Assembly (NCBI GenBank): GCA_051294375.1
Contig: CM119270.1
Location: 11,848,416-11,912,415, forward strand
Direction of reading: 5' to 3'
Origin: Paraspadella gotoi
Taxonomy: Eukaryota; Animalia; Chaetognatha
DNA length: 64,000 nucleotides
The notes below the pieces were generated by a model, which saw only the letters and a program-made list of their open reading frames with translations, did not search any database and was not told where the DNA came from. Positions 6,327-50,623 of this stretch are shown here, in pieces (within the stretch, counting starts at the first letter, position 1; every line of letters begins with the position of its first letter). Both the position numbers and the translations under genes were made by a program.

Positions 6327-6410
<84 letters not shown>

Positions 6411-6783
6411 GAGAGAGAGTGATTTTAATACAAACAAAATACTGCCTGTCTTCTTTCAAGAAGTCAACCGATTTTCCAAAAAAAATGAAGAAGGAGAATC
6501 GAAATTTCAAGTAAAAAAAAGATCAAGAAAAACTTTTTACATCCAAAAATAAAACTGTACGGCAAAAGCCGAAGCAGTAGAAAGGAAGAAACAGGGGAAA
6601 AAATATAGAAGAGAGAGAGACAGACAGAATTTTGTCTGTTTTTTATTGTTTCTTTTCATGGTTTTTATTCGATTTTTTTTTTTAATCCTGCTTTTTTCCG
6701 GAAACGTTTTTTCTCTTATCTCGCAACCAAAGGCGTCACTTGAGAAGAGAGATTGAACAAAAAGCCAATCGTCACTACTCTGT

Positions 6784-6845
<62 letters not shown>

Positions 6846-7346
6846 CTCTCTTCTTCTCTCCTCTCTCTCCTTTTTTCCCTCTTTCTTTTTTTTTCTCCTC
6901 TCTTCCTCTCTCTCCTTTTTTCCAGATTTCAGCGCTTCCTCATAATCCCGTTTTGGGGTCAGAGATCGAGAGGGTGACCCACAACCTTTTTTGGGAAGGG
7001 TTGGATGGAATTCTTCGTCTTGAAAAATTGACCTTGAAAAATCCTTGATCCTTTATTTGGTTTGAGATGAAAAAAGAAGGATGATGGGAGGGTAAAAAAG
7101 CACCCAGTAGGAGCCAAAAAAGAAAAAAAATATGGGAAAACATTTTTTGGAAAAAACCAAAAAAAGGTTGGAAAACTAACATTTAATAAAAATATACCAT
7201 CTAACAAAAATACTACCAACATCGATAATTTCAAAAATGGTATCGAAATTGAATTATACTTAAAATCAGTTACTTTATGAAATAAAATTAAATCCAACAT
7301 ATTTCAATGTATAAATAAATTAATCCACAACTAAATCCAATAAGAA

Positions 7347-15600: not shown

Positions 15601-16352
15601 AGATTTACAGATTTCAAGTCTGAAAATGTTTCAGTAACAGCTTTCTGTGTTACTTTAATGAGTCCCTTCGTTTCCCGGGGGAGAGATACGGATACGTATC
15701 GCAACGCCCCGGATGTCATTCGATGAGGCATAAAGGATTTTCGTTACGCTGCGACGCTGTCTGGCGCCTCGGGCGATTAACGCTTTGTAGATTGAGAACC
15801 AGGACAAATGGAAAGTTCCGAAGATACAAGGATGATGCGAGGCCGAGCCAACCGAAGGGCGAAACAGTTTACCTTGAGATTTTGTTGTCAGCAGCTGAGC
15901 CACACGTTTGTTTGAATGAATGTAAAAAAATATTTTTTTAGAATTTATATCTGTAATTTTAACCATGGAGAGGGCAGGATTCGCATTGTATTTATTAGTA
16001 GCGTTGTTCGTTGCCGTGTCAGTTATATTCAAGTCTCCTAGATTTGCCATGACCCACCCCCTTACCCCATCGTCTCTCTATCTTCCCGGATGGTTTTTCT
16101 CAGCGCCAGACTCTCTTGCGATCTTTTATAATCCGTTTAATCCCCGCCGCGTCGACGGCGGAGCCGGCTGGGCTGCGGGAGCCACGCCCACGGGAGCCAC
16201 GCCCGAGACGCATTCCGATTCCCTCGGCGTTTCTCGTCGATTCGTCGACTCGCTGGTGATTATTTTTCCAGCCTTAAAGACGAGTGTTGCCGACGTTGCT
16301 TTCGTCGGTTGTCAGTTGCGTTGTCGTAGTCCTCGGAGGCGGTGTCGGCGCC

Positions 16353-16387
<35 letters not shown>

Positions 16388-16748
16388 CATGATTTTCGAT
16401 CTGAAAATTTAGTATTGTGGCGAATCCTAAATTCGCTTCCCGTATAGCTTGGTGCTCTCTCTCTTCTCTCTCTCTCTTCTCTCTCTTTCTCTCTCTCTCT
16501 CCTCTCTCTCTCTCTTCTCTCTCAACAGCTTTCCGCGTCTAAATTTCCCCCTATTCGTCTTCGCAGTAGAACATCCAATAACGACCTCCTTTAGTTTCTC
16601 TATCTCGTTTATCCGCTGGGCGTCGGTGTGGTGAGAGAGGGAAGGATCGCCGTTGGAATTTCCGAGAAATCGTTTCACCGGAAAAGAAAAACTCTCACGT
16701 TTGTGGAGTCGATACTTTGAAGAGGAAAAAAAAAAGGAAAGGAGAACA

Positions 16749-16823
<75 letters not shown>

Positions 16824-25277: not shown

Positions 25278-25356
<79 letters not shown>

Positions 25357-25577
25357 CTCACCTTTCCGCGTCTAATCCCCCTATTCGTCTTCCGCAGTAG
25401 AACATCCAATAACGACCTCCTTTAGTTTCTCTCCGTTTTTATCCGCTGGGGCGTGGTGGAGAGAGAGGGAAGGATCGCCGTTGGAATTTCCGAGAAATCG
25501 TTTCACCGGAAAAGAAAAACTCTCACGTTTGTGGAGTCGATACTTTGAAGAGGAAAAAAAAAAGGAAAGGGAGAACA

Positions 25578-25639
<62 letters not shown>

Positions 25640-28571
25640 GCTCTCTCTCTCTCTCTCTCTCTTTCATCGCCATGCCGGCGAAGCGATTCGCTGGCGAGGC
25701 CTCTAGCGCTATTCTCCATGGACTATAACGTAAGCGGTGAAGACTTTAGAACGAGTGGAGTCGGCGCTCTTTAGTCTTTGATCAAGATGATTCACGATTT
25801 GCATAAAATATGAAAACGACTCGCGAAAACGATTAAATGAGTGCTTGTTAAAAAGTATAGATTTTGTTGTCTGAAATTATATGTATAGTATTTAGGTTGA
25901 TTTGAGCGAAAAGAAGCTTAAAAATTCCATTTAAATTCAAATTTTTTTTAGAACGAACGCAAAACTTTGCACAAAGTTTGCCTAACATAAAGCAGATACA
26001 TGCAACGGGGAGAGACTGTGTGATGCCCGGGGTGTGAGGCATTCCCGACAGCGAGTACGAGTACGTAAGCTGTCCAAGCCAATGGGACGAGCTGAGTTTA
26101 GAGAGAGAGAGATTTTAATATTTAATTTTAATTCTCGGTCTTCTCGTCTTTTGAACTTCGTTAGTTAGAAAGCTTCATTTCCGAGACATTGATACAAAGA
26201 AATGAGCAACACTAAGCAACATAATCATAACAACCAAGAAAAAAAAATAGCGTCGCTGAAGCTCGAGAAAGACATAAGGATAATGGAAAAAAGCATGTTG
26301 GAAACGCTTCGTTAATTTTTTTTTTCACTGTGCAACTGCAACACTATTGGGCCAAGATTCAAAAGTTCGTTTTTCAAACCATTGGCCCGTTTTACAGAAA
26401 TATATATCTGACATTAAATTGGAAGAGATTTTGAGACGATACCTATATAGTATTAACTCTTTGATTATTTCTCGATGAGACGAACTGTTAATATGTAGAT
26501 GTTTCATTTTTCTTTATTTTTTTGTATTTTCTTTTTATATGTACTTTGTTATAAATTTTAATATTGTACATTATCAAAATATAGGTTTATTCTAAAAAAA
26601 TCTCGCGGCCTCTTGTTTAAAGTAGAATTAATCAAGCGAGCCAGGTTTCGATGTTTAAATACATAACTAACTTCGCAACTTTGGAAACAAAAGACCATTC
26701 TTAAGATATTGTTTTGTCCTTCAGACGAGAGGGCGGATCACGTAAACGAAGGCCGCCCGACGTGGCGGGAGGGGTGAACGCCGAACTGTCGAGTAACGGG
26801 CCCGTCCCATCCACCGCCACCACCGGCGGACATTCAGGTAATTTATAGATTCATAGTTTTTTTTTCCACTTTTTTCTTGGGGCGTTTCGTCATTTCTCCA
26901 ACTGTGTCTTCCTCATTTATTTAGACTTCAGACTTTATTTATAGTTTATTCGTTTTTGGTTCGTTTTGTTATTCAATTTTTTCTTCAATGATAACCAGTT
27001 AGTGGAATTCACTGAAAATATTCTTACCATTGTAGTTTATTTTACATCTGCTACTCCTTTTTTTGTTCTCACCGACGTCATAAAGCCATAAAAATCTTTG
27101 AGAGTCGAGAGTTTTATATGAGTTACTTACGAAACTCTTTCCCATTATCTTTCATTACCTTTATAACTTTAACGCAGGAAGGAAATTTAAGTCGAGAAGA
27201 TAAGGTAGGCCATGAGAATCTCGTAAAAACGAATTATATTTCGGCGTGGTCGTTTCAACGCCGCACGGATTAAGGGACATAGCGATAGCGTATTTCTTTC
27301 TGTACGTGCGGCGCGAACTCGGTTTTGCGCGCACAAGCTTTTCTCTCGGTACATGTAGCGAGCACGATAAATCGATAGCTTTTCAAATATATGTTGCTCT
27401 CATGGCATTGCTAAAAACAGATTAATTTTGCTTTAATATGTTAAAGTAGGAGGGAAAACAAGAAAATTAAAAAAAGTCGTTTTAATCAAGAAGACTAATC
27501 TAAATAAGTTAAATAATCAAAAACCGCCACATCTAGATGCCTTAAAAGTCCTGTCCTGCTTCGTTAAAGTTGGCACGTGAGAAAATTCACACTCACTTTG
27601 ATTACCACCGAACCCGACAGGTTCTACATCTTCGAAACCCACTCCCCAAGCTTCGCCCTACGCTCCTTCCAAACAACTCTCCTTGACGACAAGTTCCACG
27701 CGGCCTACCCTCAATGGCGGCGGCGGCGGCGCCAAGGGAGAACATCCCGACATCCGGGTGACTAAAGCCACTTCCGGAGGCAGCGTCGCCTCCGCTCTCA
27801 CGTCCAGCATCTCCCGCGGCATCGCTCGGGCCATCGATTCCGACGAGTCGCCCGATGAGGACTACGACTCCATGAGACAGGTGCAATTTGAAGGTGGCTC
27901 CGGTGGATTAGGACGTTTTGATTATTGAGATGAAGATTATGGGAAATGTAGATCTGTAGCACAGACCTACAGACATAGGGATTAGCAAATAATAAGAAAT
28001 TCATAAAAATACACCGAGACAAAGACATAAAATCGAACTCAAGATTACGTCTTACTAAGTAATGAGCAAACACCTGCTTCAACATTACCAGCCGACTCCG
28101 ACTAACTCCCCTTGTTATTATCCCCATCAGGCCTGCATCCCCAAGTACGACTTCTCGACTTCCTACCCTCGAACCTCATCCATCATGATGATGGACGTCG
28201 GCCTCTCTCACGACTCCCCAACCCTCGCCACAACACCATCCGGCGCCGCCCCTCGCCCCGGTGCCATCCCCGGAGCTACCACCCCTTCCGGTACCCCACC
28301 ACGTCTCAACAACGGCTCTGCCCGCGTGGCCACTCTCGGCCCACCGGCGACGGCGCTGGCGCGGCGTCACAGCGGTGGCGGAGCGCCCAACGGCGCCCGT
28401 CGGAACAGCGTATACCACGCTGGCGGCGCCGCTTCCAGCGCGAGTAACGGGCATCACTCGGCGTCGTTGGATCGCGCGGCGAGCGAGGACGCCGCCGAGT
28501 CGTTTGAGAGTCGCCGACTCAAACTGACGAAACAGGGCAGCAAGTTATTGGAGGTGTTCAAACCGAAGTGA
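1326..28571 (+). CDS. Multi-exon type-I membrane protein: SUEL/Gal-lectin-like + CUB + Ser/Thr/Pro stalk + TM + low-complexity cytoplasmic tail (5' end and signal peptide not found)
   Basis: Phase-compatible GT-AG exons: 1326-1469, 2458-2548, 4295-4524, 5141-5369, 7438-7920, 11196-11274, 11723-11803, 26725-26837, 27621-27880, 28131-28571 (stop). Cys pattern LNC..AFY..C..C..C..C..C..LGYDC is SUEL-like. CSSTRTSIVAKQGYIFSPFYP..C..I.V..FRITMLDF..RFLLFFQ is CUB-like. TM segment is FAVIFFSFFVIAILCCGVAIILV. The join across the 15-kb intron is inferred from phase only. Confidence 0.7.
4295..5369 (+). CDS. CUB domain exons
   Basis: G-x-I-x-SP-x-YP motif, Cys, 'ITMLDF' and terminal 'RFLLFFQ'; exons 4295-4524 and 5141-5369 join in phase 0. 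Confidence 0.8.
11196..11274 (+). CDS. Transmembrane exon of the CUB protein
   Basis: ttttcag acceptor and gtattg donor; encodes 23 hydrophobic residues followed by QR. Confidence 0.75.
13236..14199. other. Assembly gap (N run); smaller gaps at 95-104 and 19089-19112
   Basis: Runs of n. Confidence 1.
14200..14590. repeat. ~27-bp G-rich minisatellite (GTGTGGGTGCTGATGTGGAGTGGCAAG)n next to an assembly gap
   Basis: Tandem units directly visible. Confidence 0.9.
15536..19088. repeat. Large inverted duplication: arm 15536-16454, spacer 16455-17261, reverse-complement arm 17262-19088 (interrupted by a MITE, ends at an N-gap)
   Basis: For example cgtatagcttggtg vs caccaagctatacg at the inner edges; the same peptide FKSPRFAMTHP..PSSLYLPGWFFSA appears in ORFs on opposite strands. 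Confidence 0.9.
17777..18718. mobile_element. Non-autonomous hAT-like DNA transposon (MITE)
   Basis: Imperfect TIRs of ~90 bp or more (TAGAGCGTTGAAAAA.. / ..TTTTTCAACGCCTA); 8-bp TSD TTTTACAT at 17769-17776 and 18719-18726; the empty site is visible in the other arm near 15920. Confidence 0.85.
24618..25355 (-). repeat. Reverse-complement copy of 6333-7036
   Basis: caaggtcaatttttcaagacg..ccaaccct vs agggttgg..cgtcttgaaaaattgaccttg; colinear through the (GA)n tracts. Confidence 0.85.
25360..26099 (+). repeat. Direct copy of the inverted-repeat spacer (16529-17261)
   Basis: Colinear from ctttccgcgtctaa to gggacgagctgagttt; both copies give the ORF MEFPRNRFTGKEKLSRLWSRYF. Confidence 0.9.
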
Positions 28572-31713: not shown

Positions 31714-32968
31714 AGGGCGTGAGATCAATTAACTTTGTGAAATCAAAGAAAACTAGAAAGGGCAAAGGAAAAACAGAGAGGTAGAAGATTTTGAAAGAAA
31801 AAAAACATACGTACGTTTGAGATCCGCCTTAGTTAGGGGACAATCAATAATCACTTCCTCTGGCGAGGTTATAACAGTGCCAGGTAACAGCCTCGGTTGA
31901 ACCCATAACCGGTAACGGTTGGGACTGGTCGTATGTAATGAGTGGTAAGGCGGCTTTTAGTCTCTGCCACATACTTTTATTACTATATCCAATATGATTT
32001 ACTATTTATACGATAGGATTTGTACTATACATTTACTATACTAAAACTTATTGAATTGTTGCATTTTGTTAACTTTCTGAGTCGATGATTGATAGTGACT
32101 CCATGTGATAAATAAAAAAAACAAAAGGTCGTACTGGGTAGAAACATTTTCTTGAGAAAAACAATCATTATTGACAATGACATTGTTTCGATTATGGAAT
32201 AATTAATGAACGATAATACAACTCTAGGAGTGAAATTATATAAATAATTACAATTTTATCCTGGCTTTCGTCTTTTTATAAAAATGATTCATCATCACTG
32301 ACATCAGCCAAATCAATCGATGATTCAGGAAACTTAAAAATCAATTTAATGGTCCTGTGCAAAAAAAAAAAGATACCCTAAAATATTATGCAAATTAATC
32401 TTGTTAGAATCTTTTATTATGAAATCTATTATAGGTCAATAATATTCATGTAAAAAGGAACTATTGAAGAAAATTTAGTTAGAATTTAATAATCTATTTT
32501 TAAGTAATGATTTTTTAAAACTACTCAGAGCGTAAAAAAATTGACTCATTTTTAACTTATCTTTAGGGTTTTAAAGCTGTTATAGTGTTAGGTTAGTGTT
32601 AGGTATGAGGTGTTATAGTTGAATGACCGGACCGATTTTCTTTTAACTTATAATAATATGTATGAATTCCTGTTTCGAAAATCCACATTTATTATTCCTA
32701 ATTTTTTATGATACATGTATACAACGCCCGAAAATTAAGGTTGAACGTCATTTACGTAATTTAAGATTCTCTTGTTTTGCACAGGACTACTTTTTAATTT
32801 ATAAAAATATTTATTTAATAATTATAATTAGTTATATTTTGTTGTTTTAAGACTCAATTAGAGAATCACAAACATTTCTGCTTCCGTTGCTTCTCATTTC
32901 CACCTCAATCTTTCTCTCATTTTCTTGCCTTTCTTTCTAAGAATGCGAATTCGCCTCTGAAGTCTGAA

Positions 32969-33025
<57 letters not shown>

Positions 33026-33638
33026 TCTCTCTTCTCTCTCTCTCTCTCTCTCTCTCAGTCAAGCATCCTTTTTAAACTCGCCGGGCCCTATTGGAAGACA
33101 ACGACAAAGACTCTCTGATTTTTATCTCGTGGTCGGAGTCTCTCTTTCTCTCTCTTTCTTTCTCTCTCGCTCTCTCTCCCGGACGCCGCTGCATCTGCTG
33201 CAGCATCTGACGCTGCATCTTCGGTCGCATCTCCTCCATTCTGCACCCAACAGCCATTTTCTCTTTGTAGCTTCGCCCCTCTAAGATCAAAAAGTATAAA
33301 TTATCATTATGTTACTTTTTTCTCAAATGTATTGAAGGTAAGTTTACATATTTTAAGGAATTCTTTTGTTGCTGGTCTCCCTTTCCCCTTTACGAAGTTT
33401 TACTCGAGTAAATCTGTCCGACAAAGACTTTCTTTAATTACAAATAAATTAAAACAAGTATGTAAGCAACTGACAGAATGCTATTAAGTCGTGCCCATTG
33501 ATATTCAAATTTCTTTGATTTGCTGAGCTTATTGAGTTTCTCATGTTTTATAATACTTTCTTACAGCCAAAAACGGTTTTTTTTGTTGTTACCTTCTACG
33601 TTTTTTCTATTCGTTTATATTTTCGCCTGATATGAAGA

Positions 33639-36600
33639 ATGGCTCATCTAACGGCAATCATCGATCAGGTAAGAGCTAAAATAGCGTTATGGTAGCCGTA
33701 GCGTCAGATGTTAATTTGTAACTGTAAGCCTCTCACTTACTCTCTTTAATTCACTCATTACAACGAAGATCACGCGGATGGAGAACTCGCTCGTCAACAT
33801 CTTGTTGGAGACCGCGGTGAAGCTCTCCACGCTGACCGATGCCAACATCTTTGTGATGGTTGACACGGCCGGCGGTCGCAAGTGGGCGGGGCGTAAATCG
33901 CTCAGGGACGAATACGTCAGGGGGATGTTAAAGGTGACTGCTTCTTAAATTGGACGAAATAAATTTTTATTGATTCAAATATTGCTTCAAAAATTTAAAT
34001 TACTATATATTTAAGCTGAGACTTAGTTTTAAACTTATCTTTAATCTTAACCCTAAATTACCCCTAACCCTAACAAACCCTTAACATAATTTAACACTAA
34101 TTTACCCTTAACCCTAACCTTTCCTTCGCATTAACTTATTTTTAACCTTAATTTACCTTTTAGCTTAACTTACCCTAATCCTATTTTTAACTTTACATTA
34201 CCCTTATTTTTAACTTACATTTAATCATAATTTGTTCTTAACCTTAATTTACTATAACCTGAAGTAACTTTTAACTATAATATAATCATTATTTAAATAT
34301 TAATATAATAACTATAATAACAAATATTAAAAAATTATGATATCTGAATTTCTTTATTTTTTCTTTTATCTTCCGTTCCTCTTTTATTCTTTTTCCGTTA
34401 ATTTATTTAAAAAAAACTTGTTTTTCATTTTCCCATAAGCCTCCAGAGCGTATTCAACTCCAGGAATGCCAAATTTAGATATCGTTTTTTATTTTTTTAA
34501 AATAACAGGTTTCATATTATTAGAAATATTTGTTTTTGAATTCTCTTCAATTTTTCTTATATTAACTGTAATATTATACCACTTCATTGATAGGGAAGCC
34601 AGGGAGTGAATAAACGAGACTGTGAGAGAGTCTTGATTGAAAGCTTGCAGGGACCTGCTATGTCATTATCTTTTAAGAGTGATGGAGGCCTTAAACCACC
34701 AAAGCCTGTCCAAAGTCAGGGGCAAGATAGCTTATTTATTAAATGAATGGATAATTTTTATATTGGTTGTACCAATTTCATAAAATTCAGCTCCTTGTAT
34801 TTTGATGCTAGTGGCGGGGTACAATAAGTATTCGCCCGAATCTAATACTTAAGGGAGTGGTTCGTTTTCATACAATTGAAACATTCTTTGAAATATTAAT
34901 ACCACTGCAATTGATAGGGAAGCCAAGGTACTCTGGGAGTGAATAAACGAGACTGTTGAGAGAGTCTTGATTGAAAGCTTGCAACGACCTGCTATGTCAT
35001 TATCGTTGTAAGAGTGATGGTAGGCCTTTAAACCAAACAGCCTGTCCAAAGTCAGGGGCAAGATAGCTATTTATTAAATGAATGGATAATTTTTTATATT
35101 GTTGGTACCAATTTTATGTAAATTAGTAATATAGTATAAAAATTTTTTTAATAAAAAAAAATTTTTGAAAGATATTAAATGGATATTTTGATTTGATTTG
35201 GAATTCCCAAATCATTTTGATCAACTGTAATTAATTAACAAATTAGCATAAAGCATAGACAAGTTTTTTGTTCGTTTTTTTATTTAAAAAATATTTTAAC
35301 GTTATAAATTTAATTATTTTTAAATTTTTATTTCTCTTTTTTAGATTTTTTAAATATGATCGCATCAATCAATAGTTAACACATCGAATCGATGAAAGAT
35401 TATTATCGTATCATTGAATGGTTATGGTATCATATAATTATTTTTATCGGATTATTGAATGATTATCATTGCATCAATCATTCGTTATCATCGCATCAAT
35501 CATTCGTTATCATCGCATCAATCATTCGTTATCATCGCATCAATCATTCGTTATCATCGCATCATCATTCGTTATCATCGCATCAATCATTCGTTATCAT
35601 CGCATCAATCATTCGTTATCATCGCATCAATCATTCGTTATCATCGCATCAATCATTCGTTATCATCGCATCAATCATTCGTTATCATCGCATCAATCAT
35701 TCGTTATCATCGCATCAATCATTCGTTATCATGCATCAATCATTCGTTATCATCGCATCAATCATTCGTTATCATCGCATCAATCATTCGTTATCATCGC
35801 ATCAATCATTCGTTATCATCGCATCAATCATTCGTTATCATCGCATCATCATTCGTTATCATCGCATCAATCATTCGTTATCATCGCCATCAATCATTCG
35901 TTCTCATCGCATCAATCATTCGTTATCATCGCATCAATCACTCGTATCATCGCATCAATCATTCGTTATCATCGCATCAATCATTCGTTATCATCGCATC
36001 AATCATTCGTTATCATCGCATCAATCATTCGTTATCATCGCATCAATCATTCGTTATCATCGCATCAATCATTCGTTATCATCGCATCAATCATTCGTTA
36101 TCATCGCATCAATCATTCGTTATCATCGCATCAATCATTCGTATCATTCGTCAATATCGATCATCGCATCAATCATTCGTTATCATCGCAATCAATCATT
36201 CGTTTCATCGCATCAATCATTCGTTGTCATCGTATCAATTCGATCATCGAAATCATTCGTTATCATCGCATCAATCATTCGTTATCATCGCATCAATCAT
36301 TCGTTATCATCGCTCAATCATCGTGTCATCGCATCAATCATTCGTTGTCATCGCATCAATCATTCGTTGTCTCGCATCATCATCGTGTCATCGCATCAAT
36401 CATTCGTTGTCATCGCATCAATCATTCGTTATCATCGCATCAATCATTCGTTATCATCGCATCAATCATTCGTTATCATCGCATCAATCATTCGTTATCA
36501 TCGCATCAATCATTCGTTGTCATCGCATCAATCATTCGTTGTCATCGCATCAATCATTTGTTGTCATCGCATCAATCATTCGTTGTCATCGGCATCAATC

Positions 36601-38228
36601 ATTCGTTGTTCATCGCATCAATCATTCGTTGTATCGCATCAATCATTCGTTGTCATCGCATCAATCATTCGTTGTCATCGCATCAATCATTCGTTGTCAT
36701 CGCATCAATCATTCGTGTCATCGTCATCAATCATTCGTTGTCATCGCATCAATCTTTCGTTGTCATCGCATCAATCTTTCGTTGTCATCGCATCAATCTT
36801 TCGTTGTCATCGCATCAATCTTTCGTTGTCATCGCATCAATCTTTCGTTGTCATCGCATCATCTTTCGTTGTCATCGCATCAATCTTCGTTGTCATCGCA
36901 TCAATCTTCGTTGTCATCGCATCAATCTTTCGTTGTCATCGCATCAATCATTCGTTGTCATCGCATCAATCATTCGTTGTCATCGCATCAATCATTCGTT
37001 GTCATCGCCATTCAATCATTCGTTGTCATCGCATCATCATTCGTTGTCATCGCATCATCATTCGTTGTCATCGCATCAATCATTCGTTGTCATCGCATCA
37101 ATCATTCATTTTTTGGTAAAATTTTACTTTCGCAGACCGAGTTTTGGCGTTTTTTAAAAAAACATTTCAAAAATAAATATTTTTTAAAAAAAAATAATAA
37201 CCCTTAAACCACCTTTAAGCCTAAATCCCACTTAACCCCAGTCAGCAAAGTAAAATTAACCCCTTTTTTTGGGATAGATATTGGGTGATAGATCATTATG
37301 CTCCTAAATTTTTTAAATAATTTTCTATGATTGCAACTTGCGAGATCACTATACTTTTAAGACTTTTGTTTTTTAAAAGCTTTAAATCAGTACCGATTTC
37401 CCTATTCAGCCTTCCAGTAAAGACGTGGAGGTTACTGAGGCGATATCTTCCGTGCCCCAAGAGGAATTCTCCGTCGGCCATTTAATGGGAATGGCCGCGG
37501 GGGGTCTCGGCTCGCAGCAGCCGCTCCCCCCGTCGGCTCCCTCCGTCCCCGTTTTCGGCCAGGCCGTGTTTCCCACAGCTCAGCAACACTCGCATCAGCA
37601 ACAGCAGCAGCGAGACGGAGAGCCGGGGGCAGCCAAACGGCCACGCCTCTCCGTCTCTGCCGATGTCTCCTCCACGCCCACCTCCAATGCCTCGTCCGCT
37701 TCCGCCTCCAAAATCGTCGTTAACAATAACGTTGCCACCTCGCCGCCTCACGTGAGAAGGAAGTCTCCGAACAGGTAAATCGTGTAAGACGTTTTGTCGT
37801 TGTTGTTATTTTCTAGCTTTCTTCATTGGTAAAAATCATGAATATTAAGTGTTTATGAACTATTCTAACTTTCGCTTAACCTACTTGATTTATTTATTTT
37901 CCCAAACCCTAGAGAGCCTCAACCCGTCATCCTTGAGGCGAACCTCTCCCCGATTAACCCGTCAACGCCCCCCGCGACGACGACGACGAACAGAGAGACG
38001 AAAAACTTAAAGGACGAATTCAACGGCGACGAACGAGTCGACGACGATTCCATCGTCATTAAGGAAGAGTTGGGTCGTGGCCGGGGAGACGACAGCCGTG
38101 GCTACGACGATGACGAGGAGGAGCTTGAAGCTAGCCTGGATGACGCCGGTGGAGGCGTAACCGGATGGGGCGAAGTCGCCCTAGCCGGTCCGTCTGGGCT
38201 ACAACAAAATTCGGACGCCAATCAACCG
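33639..38228 (+). CDS. Common N-terminal exons (292 aa) of a multi-isoform transcription factor: degenerate MADS/SRF-like module + disordered linker
   Basis: Exons 33639-33668 (MAHLTAIIDQ), 33769-33933 (ITRMENSLVNILLETAVKLSTLTDANIFVMVDTAGGRKWAGRKSLRDEYVRGMLK), 37410-37774, 37913-38228. All junctions are in frame. Contains NLS-like AKRPRL, SUMO-type IKEE/LKDE and an acidic tract. Ends CCG|gtaagt (phase 0) with no stop codon. Confidence 0.8.
34575..35120. repeat. Local direct duplication (~34575-34780 and ~34900-35120)
   Basis: Shared ttgatagggaagcca..gtccaaagtcaggggcaagatagc..ggataatttt. Confidence 0.8.
35460..37107. repeat. 22-bp tandem satellite (ATCAATCATTCGTTATCATCGC)n in intron 2 of the TF gene
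   Basis: Head-to-tail units without spacers over ~1.65 kb. Confidence 0.97.
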
Positions 38229-39827
38229 GTAAGTTTTCGATAATATAATATTTCGTTTTATGCTTCTTAGCGTAGTTTTTTTTTTTTTTTCTCCGAGAGC
38301 CATATACGCCGTGTCATTCTTCATTTTCCGGGTATTTAGAAATAAATACTATTCAGTGACTCAAAAGACGATGACTACGACGACCTTACCTATGACAACC
38401 AAATGAAACTGTATTGAATCTCACCAGTCACCACTCAATCGTTTAATCGACACAACCTTAATTATTAAGGTTTAATGTACCGGAAAACCGTAGAGAATGA
38501 ACACGGCTATACGGATAATTATCGAGATGTCCACTAACGTGCATTGCGATTACATTAAGAAGATATTCGACATTCATGTTTACCGCCCTACAAGTTTTCT
38601 ATTTACCTCTATTTCATGACATCCTTAAGTGATCTCATTATTTTGTTATTAAATTATCTATTTATCATAAAAACTAAATTAGTTCTAGACAAAGACTTGT
38701 GTGGTGAGAGACATATTTTAACAACTTTCTATTTCATGAATGTTTGGGAAGTAACAATTTTGAGGTATTCCTAAATTTTTTAATAGAAATTGATTTTTAC
38801 TGTGACATGAAAGTTTAATCTCGGATAAAATTAAGTGAACACTTTTTAGCTTTTGATATATTTGGTTAATAACTTCTTATAACAATTTTTGAAGGCTGTG
38901 GTAATATTAAAGCTATGCAATTCTAGTTCTTTCAATTATTTTTTTTAATCGCGAATATTTAAATTTAACCAAATTTAAAAAAAGATTTTACTTAGATTGA
39001 ATGGCTTAAATTATTTTAAGAATGAATATAATTAGGATGGGCTTAAAAGTAGCATTGCAGTGACGAGTTTTACCTCTGCATGAGTTGAAAAGGAAGAGGC
39101 ACGCGTCTTGAACTCTTAACTTTAGTTAATAAATTGTTGTTACATTAAAAGAACGTCGTGCCTATTCCTTTTAATTTTTTACCCCAGCTGTCCCATCCCA
39201 TGAGCTACTTCTGACAAGTGCATTGATGAGTTTTGAGTTTCATTATTCACTTTAGATATTTGGGAAATTCTTCTTTCAATTTTAACAATTTAATCGCTTT
39301 TTTATTCACTTAAAACCATAAACCAACAAAAACCAACACACTTTTCGCTTTTTAAAACTAATTCCCCCAGCTATGACTTCACCGGATTCGTGCCTTTTTT
39401 CTTCCTCGATACATTTCTAACTAGAATGGACTTCTAATTAGACCTGTAAATCAGCGAAATGGGAAGCAGTGCAGCCTCATGCAGATTCGTAATAAGGTTG
39501 AATAGATGCGTATTTTTGTTGTGCGAACAAATGAATACGATTGCGCCCTGATGAGATTATTGGGCCTTCTAATCTGGCGATTACCAATGTTTTCGAGTTT
39601 GGAAAAAAAAATTATGGGGAATAAAAGAGCAAATAACAAACACAAAACTGATCAATGCATTTGTGGTGAAGGGACATGCTCTTATTTCCCCTTTTCCCAT
39701 CCTCTCCCTCTAGCCCATGTATTAAAACAAATACACAGCATTGAAAAGCAGGACATTGACGAAAGTGCTGTTATCAAATTTTTTCATATGACCACCCTCC
39801 CATAACCCTCCCTACCCTTTTCAAAAG

Positions 39828-40511
39828 GAACCCGAAAGGATTGGTATCGCCGATTACATGGCCGCTCGCACTCCCGAACCCTATATCTGCTCCGTGTGCT
39901 ATGTCGTGTTCCAAAGCCCCACACTTTTGACCGAACACCAAACGACCCACGAGGCTTCCCCTATCGATTCTTCCACGGCCGCCGCCGCCGCCCCCAACCT
40001 TCCCCCCGCCCTGCTTGGACCCAACGACGAGGACAGCGGAGAAGACGGTATTTTCGTCGAAGGCTACGCGCACCCAAACGGGAAAGACTACTTGTGTACG
40101 ATATGCAACAAGCCGTTCAAAAGGAAAGACTATTTCAAACAGCACCTGCTATCGCATTCAAGAAAGTTTCAGTGTCCGCATTGCAACTTCAACTTCGCCC
40201 GAAAGGATCACTTGGGAAGGCACTTAAAAAACCGCGTCTGTCTGCGGGGGTTGGAAAACAATGAGCTGGCGGCCGAGCACAAGGCCAAGATCATGAACAA
40301 TGACGAAGACGACGACGACGACGACGACGACGTCGTTGACGAAGAAGAAACCAAAGACAAAAAGCAAACGAATACGTTGAACATTCTAGAAGCGAAACCA
40401 GATTCCGGAGATAAGGAAGCCATTATTGAGGAGAAAGACGCGGCGTCTCCATCCAAAGACGTTAAACCCGTCATGTCTACTAGAAAAAGCAAAAGAGGGC
40501 AAAGAGATTGA
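39828..40511 (+). CDS. Alternative terminal cassette A: three zinc fingers (C2H2, C2H2, C2HC)
   Basis: Phase-0 acceptor tttcaaaag|GAA; YICSVC..HQTTH, YLCTIC..HLLSH, FQCPHC..HLKNRVC; stop at 40511. Confidence 0.85.
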   Translation, partial: EPERIGIADYMAARTPEPYICSVCYVVFQSPTLLTEHQTTHEASPIDSSTAAAAAPNLPPALLGPNDEDSGEDGIFVEGYAHPNGKDYLCTICNKPFKRKDYFKQHLLSHSRKFQCPHCNFNFARKDHLGRHLKNRVCLRGLENNELAAEHKAKIMNNDEDDDDDDDDVVDEEETKDKKQTNTLNILEAKPDSGDKEAIIEEKDAASPSKDVKPVMSTRKSKRGQRD

Positions 40512-40796
40512 CATTTACTTTTGTTCTTATCCTTTTTACTTGTATCCGTATATTTATTATCATTTCTTCCATTTGTCGAGTGCAAACTTGAAAAAGTTTA
40601 ATTTCTTTTTTTCAATACAAGTTTTTTTTCCCAAATGAGGTTTTATTTCCTGGTGATCGGTCGATATACTTCCTTCATCTTTAGTGCTTGTTTGGTTCTC
40701 CGATGCGACAGCTGGTTATTTATAATTTAAATGGCTATTTAAAAAAATCCCCCAAAAAATCCACCATACAAAACCAAAAATCCGTTTCGTCAAAAG

Positions 40797-41150
40797 GTGG
40801 GATTCGCCTCCCGAATTCTCGCTCTCTGCCGTTCTCGACAAGAGGTCCCAACTTCGGCGACCACTGTCGTCACCGAGAATTCGTCGACCTTCAACTGCCT
40901 CGTCTGCGGCGACACCTTCCCCGACGATAAAACTCGGGAGGCTCACGAAGCCGGCCACGCCGACGATGTCCGAGCAGCCTGTCCAGTTTGCGGCGAGATT
41001 TACGTCGTTCCTGACTTGATCGTTCATTTGAAGCGACACTTTGATGACGACGACGGTGAAGAGGAGGAAGAAAGTCGATATTCTTGCCAAGACTGCGGAG
41101 CCAAGTTCGCCTTCAAGCATCACTTGTGCCGTCATCGATGCGGCGACTAA
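40797..41150 (+). CDS. Alternative terminal cassette B: three zinc fingers
   Basis: Phase-0 acceptor caaaag|GTG (a second phase-0 AG would start the exon at 40845); FNCLVC..HEAGH, CPVC..HLKRH, YSCQDC..HHLCRHRC; stop at 41150. Confidence 0.75.
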   Translation: MGFASRILALCRSRQEVPTSATTVVTENSSTFNCLVCGDTFPDDKTREAHEAGHADDVRAACPVCGEIYVVPDLIVHLKRHFDDDDGEEEEESRYSCQDCGAKFAFKHHLCRHRCGD

Positions 41151-42006
41151 GCCTTGTATTTCCTTTTTTGTTTGCATCAATACCTTAGAGAAAGTTCCGA
41201 TTTTAATTTTGAACTTTTTTTTTTATTATTAATGGACATGTTTCGACTTTGGTACAAGTCTTCATCATAATACCTTAATACAAACTAGAAATCAACTTTT
41301 TCCGCTGACCATCTTCATGACAGCGAATTTAAATTATTTATATCCGGATTCTTTCGACTCGTAGCTAAAACTGCCTCGTTCCCGCATCCAAACATTACAG
41401 ACAGCGTTCCCGCCCGCGGCAGAGGTCTTCGCTTCCCCTTCAGATCCAGATTAGATTTGTCTATTTTCTCGATCTTCAAATCTTTCACCTGCTTCACCTC
41501 AACGGTCTTGTACGCCAGTCATGGCAGTCATGTCGCACACTGACTCATTCCAGTTCGTTGTTTTCAACACTCCAAGGATCACATGGCTTCTTGCCAAAAA
41601 ATACCAAGAATTTTTTCGGCTAAGCGTTCAGCTCGTGCGGTAATTTGCGCGTGCACTTTAAAAAAGTGACCGCAATGCGTTGATAATTGCCATGTCGTCT
41701 TTTACTTTCCTGCAACTGTATCTCCTTAAAGTTTCCTCCTTTCGTGTATCCCTGTACTTGAAATCGAATTCATCAATGCGCCGTAGTTGTATAAAAATTT
41801 ATTTATGTTATTTGCATGGTTTCAAATACGTCAGCCTTATCTTTGGGACAGCTCGCTATTATTTTCCATAAGTTTATCTCGGCACACGTGCAGACGAATT
41901 TTCATAAAAGGTTTCCTGCAATGTTATTTCCGTATTTTTATGACCTGGTAGATAGTTTATCGTTAGTTTTTTTTTTTGTTTTTATCCCCCGTTTATCGAC
42001 GAAAAG

Positions 42007-42638
42007 AGCTTGAACGGATTTCGGTCGTTCTACCAACTCACCGATGACGACCTGTACCTGGCCGACCAATTTTTATACGGGACCCTGCGATCGGACCACG
42101 GATGCGCCGTCCCTTACCCTTACATGGCCTCGTCCAGCGTACATTTGTTCTGGCGCGGTTGGCTGTTTCGCTATGACAAGGCCAGACGAGTTCATACCCG
42201 CTATCGGTGTACCAAACGACAGGTGTGCAAAGTCGACAACAGGGGGGGTGCTCTTTTTTCTGTAATCGGATTTAGACGTAAATGATAAAGGACAAAACTT
42301 CATTCGTTGCTACACCTCTCCAGGGCCACCAGTGCTGCAGCGGAGCCATCAGCATTTGCAGCACGCCTGGAAATCCATTGGAAGTTATTCGCGAAGTGCC
42401 TCACAATCTCGATCCCGAGCCGGACATGGGTCGAGCCGTGGAGAAGGTGAAGGCGGCCAGGATGAAGGCTATTTACCGCCAGCAAGCGACCGGGAAGCAA
42501 TACGTCATCTACCTGGAGTCTGGCAAGTTTGATGAATACACGCCGCCCAACCTGCCCGAGATAGAAGGGTCGGTCGGAGACAGCGGCTCGCCGATTTCCG
42601 ACGAGTTGCCTTACAAGCTCGACGACGATATGGCTTAA
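42007..42638 (+). CDS. Alternative terminal cassette C: FLYWCH-like zinc finger (exons 42007-42222, 42324-42638)
   Basis: Phase-0 acceptor gaaaag|AGC. Spliced product VHLFWRGWLFRYDKARRVHTRYRCTKRQ|GHQCCSGAISIC..VIREVPHNL follows the FLYWCH pattern (L..G(Y/W).F....(W/Y).C...C...HxH), but the last His is replaced. Confidence 0.7.
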
Positions 42639-43105
42639 AGAGCTGAAACTAGCGTGAAGTCTGTCACGAAGAAATTTGATGCATCCTCATCCTGCCTTTT
42701 TTTTTTCCAGGCCCAGTTACTATTCTTCCACTTGCTAATGCTGGGTTTCAACTAGATATAGATGATTAGTCTCTTTAGACTTTATGAATCGATTGTGTGT
42801 GTTATTTGATCTTAAAAGAAAAGGAGAAAAAGTTTTGTTATTTGTTAAATTTTCATATTTTCATAGTTGTACGGATTAATTCCTATATTATAAGTTTTCT
42901 ACGAAATTATAAAAAAAAACATATTATTTCTGTTAAAGATTCTTTCGCAAATTAGAATGTATAGAATGAAACTCAAAAACTCACTCTGCCGAAAGAAAAA
43001 TTGTCACTCGAACTAGCTCAGCCCCTTTACTGACGACTCTCCCTAGCTTGTCTCCACTTGCTCCAAGTTTCTTTTTGCGGTTTACTCTCCCCAACTTTTT
43101 AACAG

Positions 43106-43531
43106 TTCCCTTACCCTTGGGAGCGAGATCTCGATTTTCGGGACGAGAAGCCCCCACTTTCGGTCGACGACGTTTTCGGCGGCGAGGAGAACGACGACGA
43201 CGCCACCAAGCTGGCCGTGGGCTCGTCTCAGGCCATCGTGCCTCTGGGGCCCAACGCGTCCCCGCTGGCACACGGCGCCTCCCAGCTCTTCGCACCCAAT
43301 CCCCTTGAACTGGCCCACAACGCGAGGTTCATTATGCGTCATGGATGCAAATTTAATCCTTACCAAAGTTCCGCGCTGCAGAACCTTTACAACATGAACC
43401 CTTACCCGTCGGGGGAGGAGAAAAGGAAGATCGCTAATCTGATCGGAATCACGGAGTCACAGGCCTGCAATTGGTTTCAAAACAAACGGAACCGTGACAA
43501 AATGAACATGAAATTCAAGCCAAAATCCTGA
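43106..43531 (+). CDS. Alternative terminal cassette D: divergent SIX-like homeodomain with Q50
   Basis: Phase-0 acceptor tttttaacag|TTC; homeodomain ..LQNLYNMNPYPSGEEKRKIANLIGITESQACNWFQNKRNRDK. Confidence 0.85.
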   Translation, partial: FPYPWERDLDFRDEKPPLSVDDVFGGEENDDDATKLAVGSSQAIVPLGPNASPLAHGASQLFAPNPLELAHNARFIMRHGCKFNPYQSSALQNLYNMNPYPSGEEKRKIANLIGITESQACNWFQNKRNRDKMNMKFKPKS

Positions 43532-43897
43532 AATTAGTGATCGCACTCTTTTTGGTTGTTGTCTCACACGCTTCTCTCTTTGAAATCCATCCCCCCCTTT
43601 ATTTTCAGTTTTCATACTGTCTTTTTGTCTTTGCGTGTTTCTTTGTGCTTAGAAAAAAAGTTTTAGACGAGCCAAATAAGATTATTTTTTAAAAAAACTC
43701 CTCAATGCACTTAGGAAGTTATCAATTTAATTTTTATTTTTTACATATAGCGCTTACAATGAGTTTAAATTTAGAATAAGTAATTTCTTCACACTTTGAA
43801 AAGTAATCGAGTAAACAATCGATGCGCGAATCAGTAAATTTTGGGTCACCTCCATTTTCTCCCTTTGCGCCTTTTATTTAAAAAAAAAACGTCTTAG

Positions 43898-44548
43898 CTC
43901 TACCTGGCCGACCTTCTGGACGTCGACGACGAAGGCAACGTTTTTGCCAATCTGCAAATGTGGAAAGACGACAGCGTATCCTCCCGGAGTGCCGCGTCGC
44001 AGGATCAAGACGAGGATTCGGCCATCGGTTTGGCCGTCGTAAAGTTAGACGACGATACGGAAACGCCCTGTCCTTACCAAAACTGTGATAAGCTATTCTC
44101 GAGCGCCGCAGCTCTCAGGTCAGTTTGCAGGCGTTTGATAATTCGCCAGTGACGAGCCGACTGCTTGCGACACCTTTCCTGCCAGAATTCCTCTCGCCGT
44201 TAACTTTTTCGCTTTTCGATCACAGACGGCACATAAAACGAATTCACCAAAACAACTACGCCTTTCGCTGCGGCATATGTCAAAAGGGGTTTAACGAAAA
44301 GAGGGATTTCAAGCTACATGTAGACACGCATTCTGGGGTTAAAAACTATAAGGTACATAGGGGTTCAAGTTGGGGCCTTATCTCGATTACAGTTTATTTT
44401 AATTTTATTTTCTACTGGGCTTTTCTTTTTATTCTTTCCGGCATGAAAGTGCCCGCATTGCAGCCGCCAATACTCTCAGAGCGGCTCCATGCACCGACAC
44501 GCCCGAAAATGCCTTGGACCCGAGTCGACGACGTGCTTGGGATCGTGA
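43898..44548 (+). CDS. Alternative terminal cassette E: three zinc fingers (exons 43898-44118, 44226-44352, 44450-44548)
   Basis: Phase-0 acceptor gtcttag|CTC; CPYQNC..LR|RHIKRIH, FRCGIC..HVDTHSGVKNYK|CPHC..HARKC; stop at 44546-44548. Confidence 0.82.
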
Positions 44549-45064
44549 CGAATCAACGCACTGAAAATGGGGCTGAATTGTGGGTCTTTGACAAAGATAT
44601 TTTTGTTTAAAAATCAGGGTCTTATTGATAATGAGAATTCGTGACATTTTCGCTTTTTCATTTTCCAAAAGTATTAGTTAACTTAGTCGCCTTTTATGTG
44701 CGTGCATGCTAATTGATATGTAAGGTGACGGTGCACTTCGGTGCGAATTAGAAAATCAAAATAAGTTTCTTAACGCGTCGTGTATGTACGGACTTCTGAA
44801 CGTCGATTTATTGTATTTCCATTATAAATATAAAAAAAAAACAGGTGCAGCGTCATTTTCTCCCCACTTGTCCAGTATTATTTTTCTTTCGATTGACACC
44901 CGAAAAAATAAAAAAAAAATTAAAGAAAATTGGTTATTTCAATCGTAATTTTTTTTTTTGAGACTATCAATGCATTTGTCATTAGTAAGGAAATATTAGT
45001 CTTTGCCATACTCTGTGGTGTGATATTAGTTACAATTAGGGACTGCTCATAATGCGAACCTCAG

Positions 45065-46415
45065 GTTCTTGACGTTTGTCCCGTGGAACCCGACGAGATG
45101 CGATCCGCTGACATCTTCGTTACCAGCATCGATTCCGTGGAACCCCGTGAGGACGAAGAGGAGGAAGAGGACGAGGAGGAGAGACAAGAGGAAAAAAGGG
45201 AAGTTGCGGAGGGAAGAGGAGACGGCGTGGAAATGGTCAAAGGTACTTGTTCAAATTTCGATAGAATTTTCAATGGTAATTTTAAGATTGTAAATGATGC
45301 AGGCTGCATAACTGAATTGGTGCAGATATTTTGTAATTAAGAAAACTTTGCAGGGAAATAAATAGCTAATTTTAATTCATAGTACTGGTTTAATTAAAAA
45401 AAAAAAAAAACATGAGCGGGCTGATCTTTTATTAGAAACTTTTTTTTACTGCAGTATGCTAATTTAAGTAGTGACACGTTTAAAGTTTTGAGTAACGACG
45501 TAAGAACGATATCAATATAATATTTCCATTTCATAAATTTGTTCCCCCTTTTTTTATTGAAGGGGAACCGAATTTCTTTCGAAGAGGAAAATCTATCGGC
45601 GGCAACTTTAACTGCTCCACCTGCGGAAAATCTTTTCCCAACAGTCGGAACCTTCGGGTAAATTAAAATCATAAAAGAGGAGAAAACCATCGAGGTCGGC
45701 AGCGGCTCAATATGGTAGTTAACAGCTTTAAATCACCCGTCCCGATACTGAGCAGTGAGCAATGCCTGACCTGGATATCATAAAAACAAATGAGGAAGCC
45801 GAGTTTTGATTTTATCTTGTTATTTGTAGCCGTCAAGCCTGTGGGCTTGATTCTTTTAAGCGGAGAGGGTGAACTGCCACCGAAACCTTCTCTGACCTTA
45901 CTTAATTGTCCGTGCCTGTTTCCTAGCGCCACATAGCCAACGTCCACCTGAAGCAGTCCTCCTTTCGCTGCGATCATTGTGGCAAAGGGTTCATGGACCG
46001 GACCAACTACGCAGACCACGTGGCGCGTCACGAGGGCGTTTCCCGCTACGTGTGCCACCTATGCGCACGCGACTTCATCTCCAAGGGCGTTTTGAAGACG
46101 CATCTCTTTACATGCACCGGAAGGCCGATCGCGTCTCGAAGCCACGCTCACTGTTCCCGGACGGCCAAGACCGACGCTGGAACGCCTGAACCGGAAATGG
46201 GCGGAGACGGTGACGCGCTTATCGGGGACGCCATGTCAGGCGCCCTTCAGCGAGGCGGCGCCGGACAAAACGTTACGCTGGAACCGGCGATTCTCATTGG
46301 CGGTGGAGCTGATTTGCACGTAGGGCAGATGATCGAAGCCAATTTGACCGACGAGGACATGTATCACAATTTCGGGTCGACTATCGCGAGGGTCATGGAC
46401 CTGTCTAGCTTGTGA
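45065..46415 (+). CDS. Alternative terminal cassette F: acidic segment + three zinc fingers (exons 45065-45242, 45563-45657, 45927-46415)
   Basis: Phase-0 acceptor cctcag|GTT; FNCSTC..LR|RHIANVH, FRCDHC..HVARH, YVCHLC..HLFTC; stop at 46415. Confidence 0.82.
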
Positions 46416-46733
46416 GAGTTTTTCTTTTGTTCCGTAATGCTAAATATTAAATAATGTTAAATCATTCTTTTTCTTATCTTTGATTCAAAGTTTGAATATA
46501 GACTCTGTACTTCAGTCTCAAGATGTCGTGAAACGTTTAGACATGTACCCAAATTCCATAGAAAACAAAAGATCTATAAATTAAGTTTATTCAAACTTTA
46601 CGCCATGATTGGTACCAATAAAATTTTCGTCAGTAGCATCCTTATAAGCAAGTACGTATATTATATATATATTTTTTTAAAATAAAGAAAAAAAAAATCA
46701 ATTTAATCAATAAAGTCTTAAGTGATTATAGAC

Positions 46734-48835
46734 TCAGTGATTTCTGACGTTGACATATCTCGGTTCGGAGGACGCGTACCCGCCCCTCGTCTTCGTGGTC
46801 GTCGTCGTAACGACCGTCACCTGCCTCACTTCCTCACCGCCCGATTTGTACTTAAATTGCTGCTCGGCGTCGATAGATTCCACCTGCGATTTGACAAAGT
46901 TCGGATTGTCCCTCCCGGTCGTTTTACATCTTTTGTTATGACGCTTCTTATGACGAAGGACGATCCCTAGGACGACGGCGACCAAGACGATCACGACAAC
47001 CACGACGACGACTATGATGACCGTCGGGCTGCTTGAGCCGCCGTCTCCGAAGGGCAGCTGGCCATCGACGATATCGGGCACGTAGCCGAGACCGAAAGTG
47101 ACGGAGTTGGAGTCTCCCCCTTGGTTGCCGTCCTCGTCAAAACCCGTGACGACGACGGTGAAGGAGGCGGAGCCCGCCCCTTCCGGCTGTACGTTGAGGG
47201 TCATCGTCTCCATCTCTCCGGCGTCGACGGTCGGTTCCACCTCGATGTCGGTTGGCATTCCGAAAAAGGCCGTCGAATCGTTTGACTCGACGCGGACGCT
47301 GTATTTGTTGACTCGGCCTTCGTCGTAGTTGTCGCCCGGCGCCGTGAACGTGAGCGTGACGTTGCCCGCCGCCTTGGACGTGCCCGTCACTCGGAGGTCG
47401 GCAATCTTGTCGGGAGGAATCTCGTCCACGCCATTCTTCAGCTTGGAGTTGACGTCATCTTTCTGTTTGATTGACAGAGAAGTGAAAAAGCTAAAGTTAA
47501 ATGGTTAAAAAATTTTAAAAGAATTAATACTACTTAGCACAAAAAATTTCATAATCAAAAGTATTAAAGCATGCACGATGACTTGCTGAAAGAAAAGAAC
47601 AACGACATCCATATTTTGTCACTTACATTACTGGAGCCAGGTTGCAACTCGGACGCGCCGGCCGTCGTGGACCTTGTCACTTCGCCCTCTATCTTCTCGT
47701 CCTCAAAAGTGGGCGCCGACTCGGGGCGCAGGTTATTTTCGTCAAAGGCGAGAGAGCCGCCGCCCCACCCGCCGGCGTTCTTAAAGGCGCGGACGACGCC
47801 GGTTCCGTTGAGATCCGATGCCTGAATTCCAAACGAGTAGCGACCGATCTCCGTAAAGGCGGTGAAGTATCGCGCGTAGACGCCGTCGTCGGCGACAGCG
47901 TCGGCACCGCGCCCGTTGTCGCGCAGCTCCAACTCATAGGGATTATTTTGACCCGGTCGATCCACGGAAGCCACGACTCTGGCGAAAGAAATGAGGGCTG
48001 GAAATATATGTATATATATTATATATGCAAGTTAAAAAATTACTTGTTTCACTATTTTTTTTTTATCGAGCCTTGACCGGCGAAGCCGGGTCAGGCTCTA
48101 TAATGTTTTAGGGTTGCTTCTTTGTGACGTAGTCGTCGTCGTCGTCGTCGTCACGCTGTTTTCATATATAAAAACTACTACGCTTTTATAGGTTTGGCTG
48201 TGACTTACCGTTTTTTTTTAAATAAAAATTATTATGAATTATGATAAAGTTTTACAAAAGTGTGCGATCATAGTAAGTTAAAAATTTAGATATGGCTTTT
48301 CATCTTGAAATAGCTGTGATATTTTCATATTACATTTGGATTTAAGTATTTTTTGTTTGAATTTCCACTTAATTATGATTTACTGCAATATGCAAATGAG
48401 ATTAAAGTACTCATTATAATATCCAAATTAGTATATAGAAATGCTTTAATCTAATTTACATATTGCAGTATATAAATTGAAGATGAAATTCAAAAAATTT
48501 GTTATAAATTTTTAATAAAGATGGGAACTCAAAGGATTTTTTTAATGAGAAGCTATATCTTAATTTTAATACAAATATAAATTAAATCTTTTACAAGCTG
48601 CGATTGGAAAAAATTGGAAAAATTTCCAATTGAAAAAAAATTGTAACATATTTTTGCCTTTCTTTTATTTCTTAAAATTATTTCTCTTTTAAAAAAACTG
48701 TTTATGATTATGTAATACTGTTTTTGGTATTTAAAAAACGAGTTCAGTCTCTGCAGTGACTGTACAGCGGCCTTCCAGCAGCTGTCCAGCTTTGTTTCTC
48801 TCTGTCTGACTCTCTCTGTGAGTCTCTCTCTGTGA

Positions 48836-48869
<34 letters not shown>

Positions 48870-49525
48870 TCTCTCTCTGTGTACGATTTCTTGCGTGATC
48901 GTTCGTTTTTTGAAAAATTATGATTATTTTTTTCCTTCTAAAAACTTTTATTATCACCATTATCCCAAATTTACATCCAAGATTTTCGTGGATTTATTTT
49001 AGAAAAAGTGAAGAATAACTCATACGTCAGAAATTTTACGCTTCTCTCCATCTCTCTCCGTCGCTAACATGATTGTTATTAAAGAAAAAAAAATATAATA
49101 AGCAAATAGCATATTTAATACCGATTTACATTGCCAGAGGAAATCTTTTTATACTCTGTCCAATGTTGTTGATCGAAAAACCTTAAATTTTTTTTCACAA
49201 TTTGAATATGCCGGATTGTATGCTATATGCCGATCATTTTTTTACTGCCTATTTTTGCCGGTTTATGGTTTAACTACCAAACAATGTATCTATTTATCAA
49301 GTTCCATTAGTGAGGCAGTGATGAAGTTGAAATGTGTGTCCATTTTCTTTGTTTCATATCGATTCAAGTATTTTTTGTTTGAATTTCCACTTCATTATAA
49401 TTTACTGCAATATGCTAATTAGATTATAGTACTTACTGCAATATCAAATTAGTATATAGTAAACTATATTTTAATTTGGCGACGAGTAAACGAGTTCCGC
49501 CAATGCAGCGTCTGTTCAGCTTCTT

Positions 49526-49556
<31 letters not shown>

Positions 49557-49897
49557 ATCTCTCTGTCTCTTTCTCTCTTTACGATCTCTTGCGTGATCGT
49601 TCGTTTTTTGATAAATTCTGATTATTTTTTCCTTCTAAAAACTTTTATTATCGCCATTTATTCCGCGCTTTTTTTCTTTACCTGGATTTCGTGGCCGTTG
49701 CGAGGCAACGAGTAAACAATGTCAAGGAACATGACCTAATAACGCGATAACGCGATATTATTATTATTATTTGGAAGTCAAAAATATCATAGTCGTTAAC
49801 TGAGTATTTTCAACTATATATTTTGTTAATAGGGATTATAATTTTTCAACGTACAAAAAATTTCTTATATGGCTTCTTTTTCTCTCTCTCTCTCTCT

Positions 49898-49928
<31 letters not shown>

Positions 49929-50076
49929 TCTCTTTTTTTTTTTTCCTTCTAAAAACTTTTATTATCGCCATTTATTCCCCGCTTTTTTCTCAATACAATA
50001 TATAAAAATTCTGATTATTCTTTATATAAACGAGAGAGACCTAATAATGCGTTTCGTTGGCGGGAAAACTGTCCAG

Positions 50077-50138
<62 letters not shown>

Positions 50139-50589
50139 ACTCATACACGCATTTGTTTGTTTTATTTACGATGAATGATTCATCGCGTCAATGAATTACT
50201 ATCATCGCATCAATGAATGACTATCATCGTATCAATGAATGATTATCATCATATCAATAAATGACTATCATCGCATCAATCATTTGATTATCATCACATC
50301 AGTCATTTTGTTATCATCGCATCAATTATTGGTTATCATCGCGTCAATATTTGGTTATCATCGCATCAATATTTGGTTATCATCGCATCAATATTTGGTT
50401 ACTATCGAAAGCGGCTCGATCCTTATGCTTTTAAGATTTTTTTTTTAGATTTATTTATGATTTTATTTATTTGTTATTATATTTAATACAAAAATATTTT
50501 ATTTATTTGTTTGGGATAGGGACGTTAGTGTTGTCTTCTGGAAATAGAATATATTTTTTGACATATTGTTTTTCTTACCAGATTGTTGA

Positions 50590-50623
<34 letters not shown>

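Follow-up and report, generated by a model that had tools for sequence, protein, structure and literature searches.

Introduction

To our knowledge, animals retain only a few MADS genes, all of which encode DNA-binding proteins. The domain shared by these factors and their relatives (MEF2A/B/D, SRF, MCM1, SEPALLATA3; SRF-TF, PF00319) lies at the N-terminus and is followed by a C-terminal extension; in MEF2D the DNA-binding residues are R3, K4 and K5 together with R15, K23 and K31 (PMC9507012), and R24 is a further contact residue of MEF2 (PMC7470950). A published precedent for such a fold adjoining a separate DNA-binding domain is NRF1 (PDB 8K4L), whose MADS-like dimerisation domain (DD) stands beside one fixed DNA-binding domain, and in which one DD still contacts the DNA backbone (PMC10810270). 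A distinct layout is found in Drosophila lola and mod(mdg4), where a constant N-terminal BTB domain and linker precede alternative last exons that code for C2H2 or FLYWCH domains (PMC11426971, PMC13490949).

The locus described here lies in a window of 64,000 nucleotides from the chaetognath Paraspadella gotoi (contig CM119270.1), and shares features with each of these systems. Like lola and mod(mdg4), it has a constant N-terminal part and a linker, followed by alternative DNA-binding last exons; unlike them, it has a constant domain whose model matches MADS and not BTB, a probable six tails instead of 20-31, and C2H2, homeodomain and FLYWCH-like tails within one locus, all on the same strand and in order. 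No sign of trans-splicing was seen, in contigs that would look alike whether spliced in cis or in trans. Its domain has the predicted topology and the N-terminal position of the MADS-box with its C-terminal extension, as well as the LS[TAS]LT[D] helix-end motif and the hydrophobic first strand, and MADS is both its best structural and its best Pfam match; in contrast to MADS proteins, it has no basic N-terminal arm, its DNA-contact positions are non-basic, its first helix is acidic and amphipathic, its match is under the Pfam cut-off, and it is fused to separate DNA-binding domains. In comparison with NRF1, the tails lie approximately 210 residues from the domain, are of several classes and are exchanged through splicing; the domain is, in addition, the hallmark of a large family of paralogues.

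A constant front end and its alternative tails

The coding features of the gene are the following:

33639..33668 (+), constant coding exon 1: residues 1-10, ATG start and GT donor; the long amphipathic helix begins here
33769..33933 (+), constant coding exon 2: residues 11-65, with the remainder of helix 1, the beta-hairpin and helix 2
37410..37774 (+), constant exon 3: residues 66-187, its opening ~13 codons completing the domain (predicted third strand)
37913..38228 (+), constant exon 4: acidic linker up to residue 292, with the shared phase-0 donor at its 3' end
39828..40511 (+), tail A: 227 aa, three C2H2 fingers (Pfam zf-C2H2, E 3.3e-13); joined to 38228 in X1
40797..41150 (+), tail B: 117 aa, C2H2-type fingers (Pfam); joined to 38228 in X1 and carried by relative P0002
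42007..42638 (+), tail C: 176 aa, exons 42007-42222 and 42324-42638, FLYWCH-like finger; both joints in X1
43106..43531 (+), likely tail D: 141 aa, homeodomain (Pfam Homeodomain, E 9.1e-14)
43898..44548 (+), tail E: 148 aa, exons 43898-44118, 44226-44352 and 44450-44548, three C2H2 fingers
45065..46415 (+), likely tail F: 253 aa, exons 45065-45242, 45563-45657 and 45927-46415, three C2H2-type fingers (Pfam)

The constant part comprises 292 residues in four exons and ends in phase 0. The sequence-only reading had placed the module at 33639-33933; the coding sequence is real, with the peptide quoted in that reading encoded at 33799-33903 (+) inside exon 33769-33933, but it does not form a single open reading frame, being split into exons of 10 (33639-33668) and 55 codons (33769-33933) by a 100-nt GT..AG intron. 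The N-termini of relatives P0002-P0004 consist of the same 65 residues, with 95-96% identity over exon 2. An in-frame TGA at 33633-33635, two codons 5' of the ATG, fixes the N-terminus and excludes a concealed basic extension at that end. Run X1 represents one study and is presumed to be RNA, on the grounds that 11 GT..AG introns are missing from its contigs; it contains the joint 37774/37913, and in one contig the 3' end of exon 2 is the loose end that precedes exon 3. Since RNA contigs were compared over 37150-47500 only, the exon 1-2 junction rests on the proteins of the relatives. Runs X2 and X3 contain almost none of the locus. After the domain, exon 3 codes for a linker of low complexity, in which a basic KRPR motif is likely a nuclear localisation signal.

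Several features accompany these exons. An out-of-frame ATG at 33632-33634, 7 nt 5' of the main one, opens a 43-codon overlapping uORF once the message is spliced, and could act as a translational brake. The likely first non-coding exon has its donor near 33338, an X1 contig implying a 5' UTR of ~310 nt, and CT/GA dinucleotide tracts lie immediately 5' of it (32971-33056 and 33130-33180). A 22-bp tandem satellite of ~75 copies (35463-37107), with a related 22-bp array at 50200-50401, sits in the intron that cuts the last strand off from the rest of the MADS-like domain.

In X1 contigs, the donor at 38228 is spliced to acceptors at 39828, 40797 and 42007. One constant front end is thus joined to at least three alternative DNA-binding tails, with six in total being likely, and the earlier suggestion that the constant domain occupies the position of BTB in lola is borne out by this sharing of a single donor. 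The class of tail C emerges upon splicing: its separate exons have no Pfam match, and the spliced product aligns with a region of paralogue P0042 (E 4.8e-6, in a set of 75 tails) that is itself a weak FLYWCH match, under the Pfam cut-off (E 2e-4). Tail D has an in-frame AG acceptor behind a pyrimidine tract, with no junction to 38228 seen in X1 contigs; paralogues P0021 and P0157 carry the same N-domain joined to homeodomains. The internal joints of tail E are present in X1, where no junction to 38228 was seen, and in relatives P0003 and P0004 the constant part runs directly into this tail, the finger exons being 87-95% identical. The internal joints of tail F are also found in X1, and we infer its first acceptor and its junction to 38228 from frame only. 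All six tails are in frame, on the same strand (+) and co-linear downstream of the constant part.

It is of note that an extra GT..AG joint (41910-42006) connects sequence within the region 3' of tail B to the tail C acceptor, and that X1 contigs continue from tail C through D into spliced E. Messages with upstream tails may keep the downstream cassettes in long 3' UTRs; alternatively, by analogy with mod(mdg4), the cassettes may have transcripts of their own. No AATAAA or ATTAAA occurs between tails A and E, an absence that is not significant (P about 0.07).

A predicted MADS-like fold

The domain is predicted to form a long helix, a beta-hairpin, a short second helix and an extended tail, a topology that contains the elements by which the MADS-box fold is recognized (long helix, two-stranded hairpin, second helix). 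The model superposes on MEF2 over 76 residues, MADS proteins rank first in structure searches with the predicted domain, and the ~78 residues include a predicted MEF2-like second helix and third strand. The module had been thought to span residues 1-65; it does begin at residue 1, but conservation in the family alignment continues to residue ~78, 13 codons into the exon at 37410. The LSTLT helix end and the hydrophobic strand, both pointed out in the sequence-only reading, are present and conserved across the family.

Sequence profiles point in the same direction. SRF-TF is the commonest Pfam match in the family, with 7 of 52 members recognized (best E 0.0061; 20 Pfam families matched), and all SRF-TF matches with printed coordinates fall in one register, the same as that of the structural alignment; together with the structure searches, this upholds the proposal of a degenerate MADS/SRF-like module. 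The Pfam check that had been suggested for this proposal shows similarity in these seven members, but the curated cut-off is not reached (15.2 bits for the first row, against 26), and exon 2 alone matches no Pfam family at E<=10. Sequence searches of the PDB, whether with exon 2, with P0017 or with either of two alignments, likewise gave no match at E<=10; the N-domain of P0004 had no usable match in the ESM Atlas, and the viral structure library none at E<=0.001 (best E 0.36). BTB had no Pfam match in the constant exons, the 52 domain rows or 50 long members, nor did Nrf1 in the same 52 rows and 50 members or in the exons of the window.

Could the resemblance be one to the NRF1/Erect-wing dimerisation domain, or have arisen by convergence, as a small helix-hairpin-helix unit not descended from SRF or MEF2? 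This seems improbable, given that the Pfam families matched by the 52 members include SRF-TF and no Nrf1, in a register that coincides with the structural alignment, and that the MEF2 superposition over 76 residues extends past the MADS core. MADS ancestry of the constant ~78 residues is, in our view, very likely.

Loss of the DNA-contact residues

The basic DNA-contact residues of MADS proteins, reported absent in the sequence-only reading, are indeed missing: the stop codon upstream leaves no arm, and the four helix 1 positions are not basic. The protein begins at the equivalent of MEF2 residue 7, so that the R3-K5 positions would fall before the start codon, and Lys or Arg is found at the equivalents of MEF2 R15, K23, R24 and K31 in 2, 4, 0 and 0 of 104 non-redundant rows, respectively. 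The mean net charge of helix 1 is -1.2, and a hydrophobic stripe (positions 4, 5, 7, 8, 11, 14 and 18, each hydrophobic in at least 89% of the 104 rows) runs along the part of the helix that in MADS proteins is basic and faces the DNA. E24 is invariant, and E15 (103/104), K28 (K/R in 104/104), F38, R47 (101/104), G51 and L55 are nearly so.

In our view it is highly probable that the domain has no sequence-specific DNA binding. By these residues it falls outside the DNA-binding MADS-box class, and it likely works like a MADS dimer. Some residual contact with DNA or chromatin, through which the domain would co-read sites together with the tail, might be sought in K28 and R47, conserved as they are, and in the fact that one NRF1 DD touches the DNA backbone. 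K28, however, lies one turn from the invariant E24, at a position where MADS proteins have a conserved Glu, which suggests an internal salt bridge, and with helix 1 net acidic and the basic arm missing we give residual contact very little credence.

The hydrophobic stripe and E15 also raise the question of whether the former DNA face of a MADS-derived dimer has become a second protein interface, employed for tetramers, larger assemblies or a cofactor. TTK-type BTB domains, which form hexamers and broad heteromers, offer a precedent (PMC11426971). The same residues could, however, merely extend the antiparallel helix pair of the dimer, and we regard a second interface as rather unlikely; it would in any case extend the reading of the domain as a dimerisation module and not exclude it.

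A large paralogue family

A search with exon 2 retrieved 119 clusters at E<=0.001 (clusters at 50% identity, 1.84 billion representatives). P0006 (1604 aa), whose match is scattered over five short stretches, was judged false and removed; P0148 and P0152 were removed as unrelated cluster members. The partners of the module in paralogues are of C2H2, homeodomain, HTH, FLYWCH-like and MBD type, or an unnamed helical domain: among 50 long members scanned, C2H2 fingers occur in three, and HTH, homeodomain, MBD and a FLYWCH under the cut-off in one apiece; P0157 is a second homeodomain member. A C-terminal domain of ~100 residues is common to 42 of the 71 members of at least 240 residues (near-duplicates included). 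It has no Pfam family, and its ESM Atlas matches, at 0.91-0.93, are to unnamed eukaryotic clusters; it is possibly an undescribed DNA-binding domain. In P0071 (residues ~266-364) and the 41 others, this domain is helical-looking with a basic end.

In a poorly resolved tree of 94 domain rows and 78 columns, a single clade of 15 rows (support 95/80) unites the members with C2H2, HTH, homeodomain and FLYWCH domains, and the MBD member lies outside it. P0061 (MBD) and P0118 (unnamed domain), considered as isoforms of one gene, group with each other in another clade, but their linkers are too different. One paralogue (P0011, P0149-P0151) has two tandem MADS-like copies and no recognised DNA-binding domain, and may be a single-chain pseudo-dimer; its model (pTM 0.63) forms the third strands and gives a weak structural match. 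Among longer proteins, a profile search recovered P0003 alone, scans of metagenome contigs with P0001 and P0013 yielded no confirmed paralogue locus, and no named, related member was present in any of 30 clusters examined. Within the window, an HMM detects no second copy of the domain, and a tblastn match at 32210-32326 was rejected as spurious.

A putative dimerisation module with exchangeable tails

The explanation that best accommodates these observations, and which we hold to be probable, is that of a locus whose four constant exons are spliced to alternative last exons, each with a different DNA-binding domain, and whose MADS-fold domain of ~78 residues, disarmed of its basic residues, would act only as an obligate dimerisation module. 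That the constant domain dimerises is very likely in itself. As modelled on MEF2, SRF and NRF1, two copies would intertwine, with antiparallel helices beneath a four-stranded sheet, and each dimer would display two DNA-binding tails at the ends of long, flexible linkers. As the module does not vary between isoforms, those that are co-expressed would pair (six tails allow up to 21 combinations), and such pairs would read, or bridge, two distinct DNA sites, which is what has been proposed for the BTB domains of lola and mod(mdg4).

Whether isoform heterodimers form in vivo is, on present evidence, evenly balanced. Dimers might instead arise only between identical isoforms, as co-translational homodimers, in which case the six tails would yield six separate factors without a combinatorial code. 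Classical BTB proteins are homodimer-only and assembled co-translationally (PMC11426971), and an intertwined fold that requires a partner in order to fold would favour early assembly (PMC9507012). Against this, the module is identical in every isoform. Heterodimers are, moreover, common among MADS proteins, and we consider a restriction to homodimers rather improbable. On the wider reading, the disarmed MADS domain would be a new generic N-terminal pairing module, comparable to BTB, SCAN or ZAD, deployed over dozens of paralogues and coupled here to a lola-like cassette array with three DNA-binding classes, whose products would heterodimerise with one another and with those of paralogues into a combinatorial code; this broader proposal is somewhat more doubtful than not.

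Parts of this design have precedents: a MADS-like dimer stands beside another DNA-binding domain in NRF1, and the layout is that of lola and mod(mdg4). What appears to be new is that the constant domain of a lola-like locus is a fully non-basic MADS-like module, that three DNA-binding classes share one array, and that the module has spread over a large paralogue family. No description of the family was found among the articles listed from openly accessible journals, and MADS is not mentioned in the main text of PMC12460157 or in three of its supplements. If correct, the proposal would define a new class of transcription-factor oligomerisation domain, a MADS fold that has lost DNA binding and pairs unrelated DNA-binding domains, and a second case beside NRF1 of a MADS dimer uncoupled from sequence reading; it would also imply that the lola/mod(mdg4) design arose independently on a different scaffold.

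Other features of the window

Rfam gave no match across the window. A weak CUB-domain exon lies at 4219-4587 (+; E 0.0013, under the cut-off). Inverted and dispersed duplications of 0.4-0.8 kb and 85-94% identity (15536-19088; 16455-17261 / 25288-26099 / 6343-7039) likely represent a non-autonomous element, and direct duplicates of 255 bp and 230 bp are found at 62596/63083 and 34567/34889, respectively. Convergent with the transcription-factor gene is a CLCA-like gene (46734-53039, -) that codes for a CLCA N-terminus, a VWA domain and a C-terminal transmembrane segment, and whose best named relative, from a chiton, is 32% identical.
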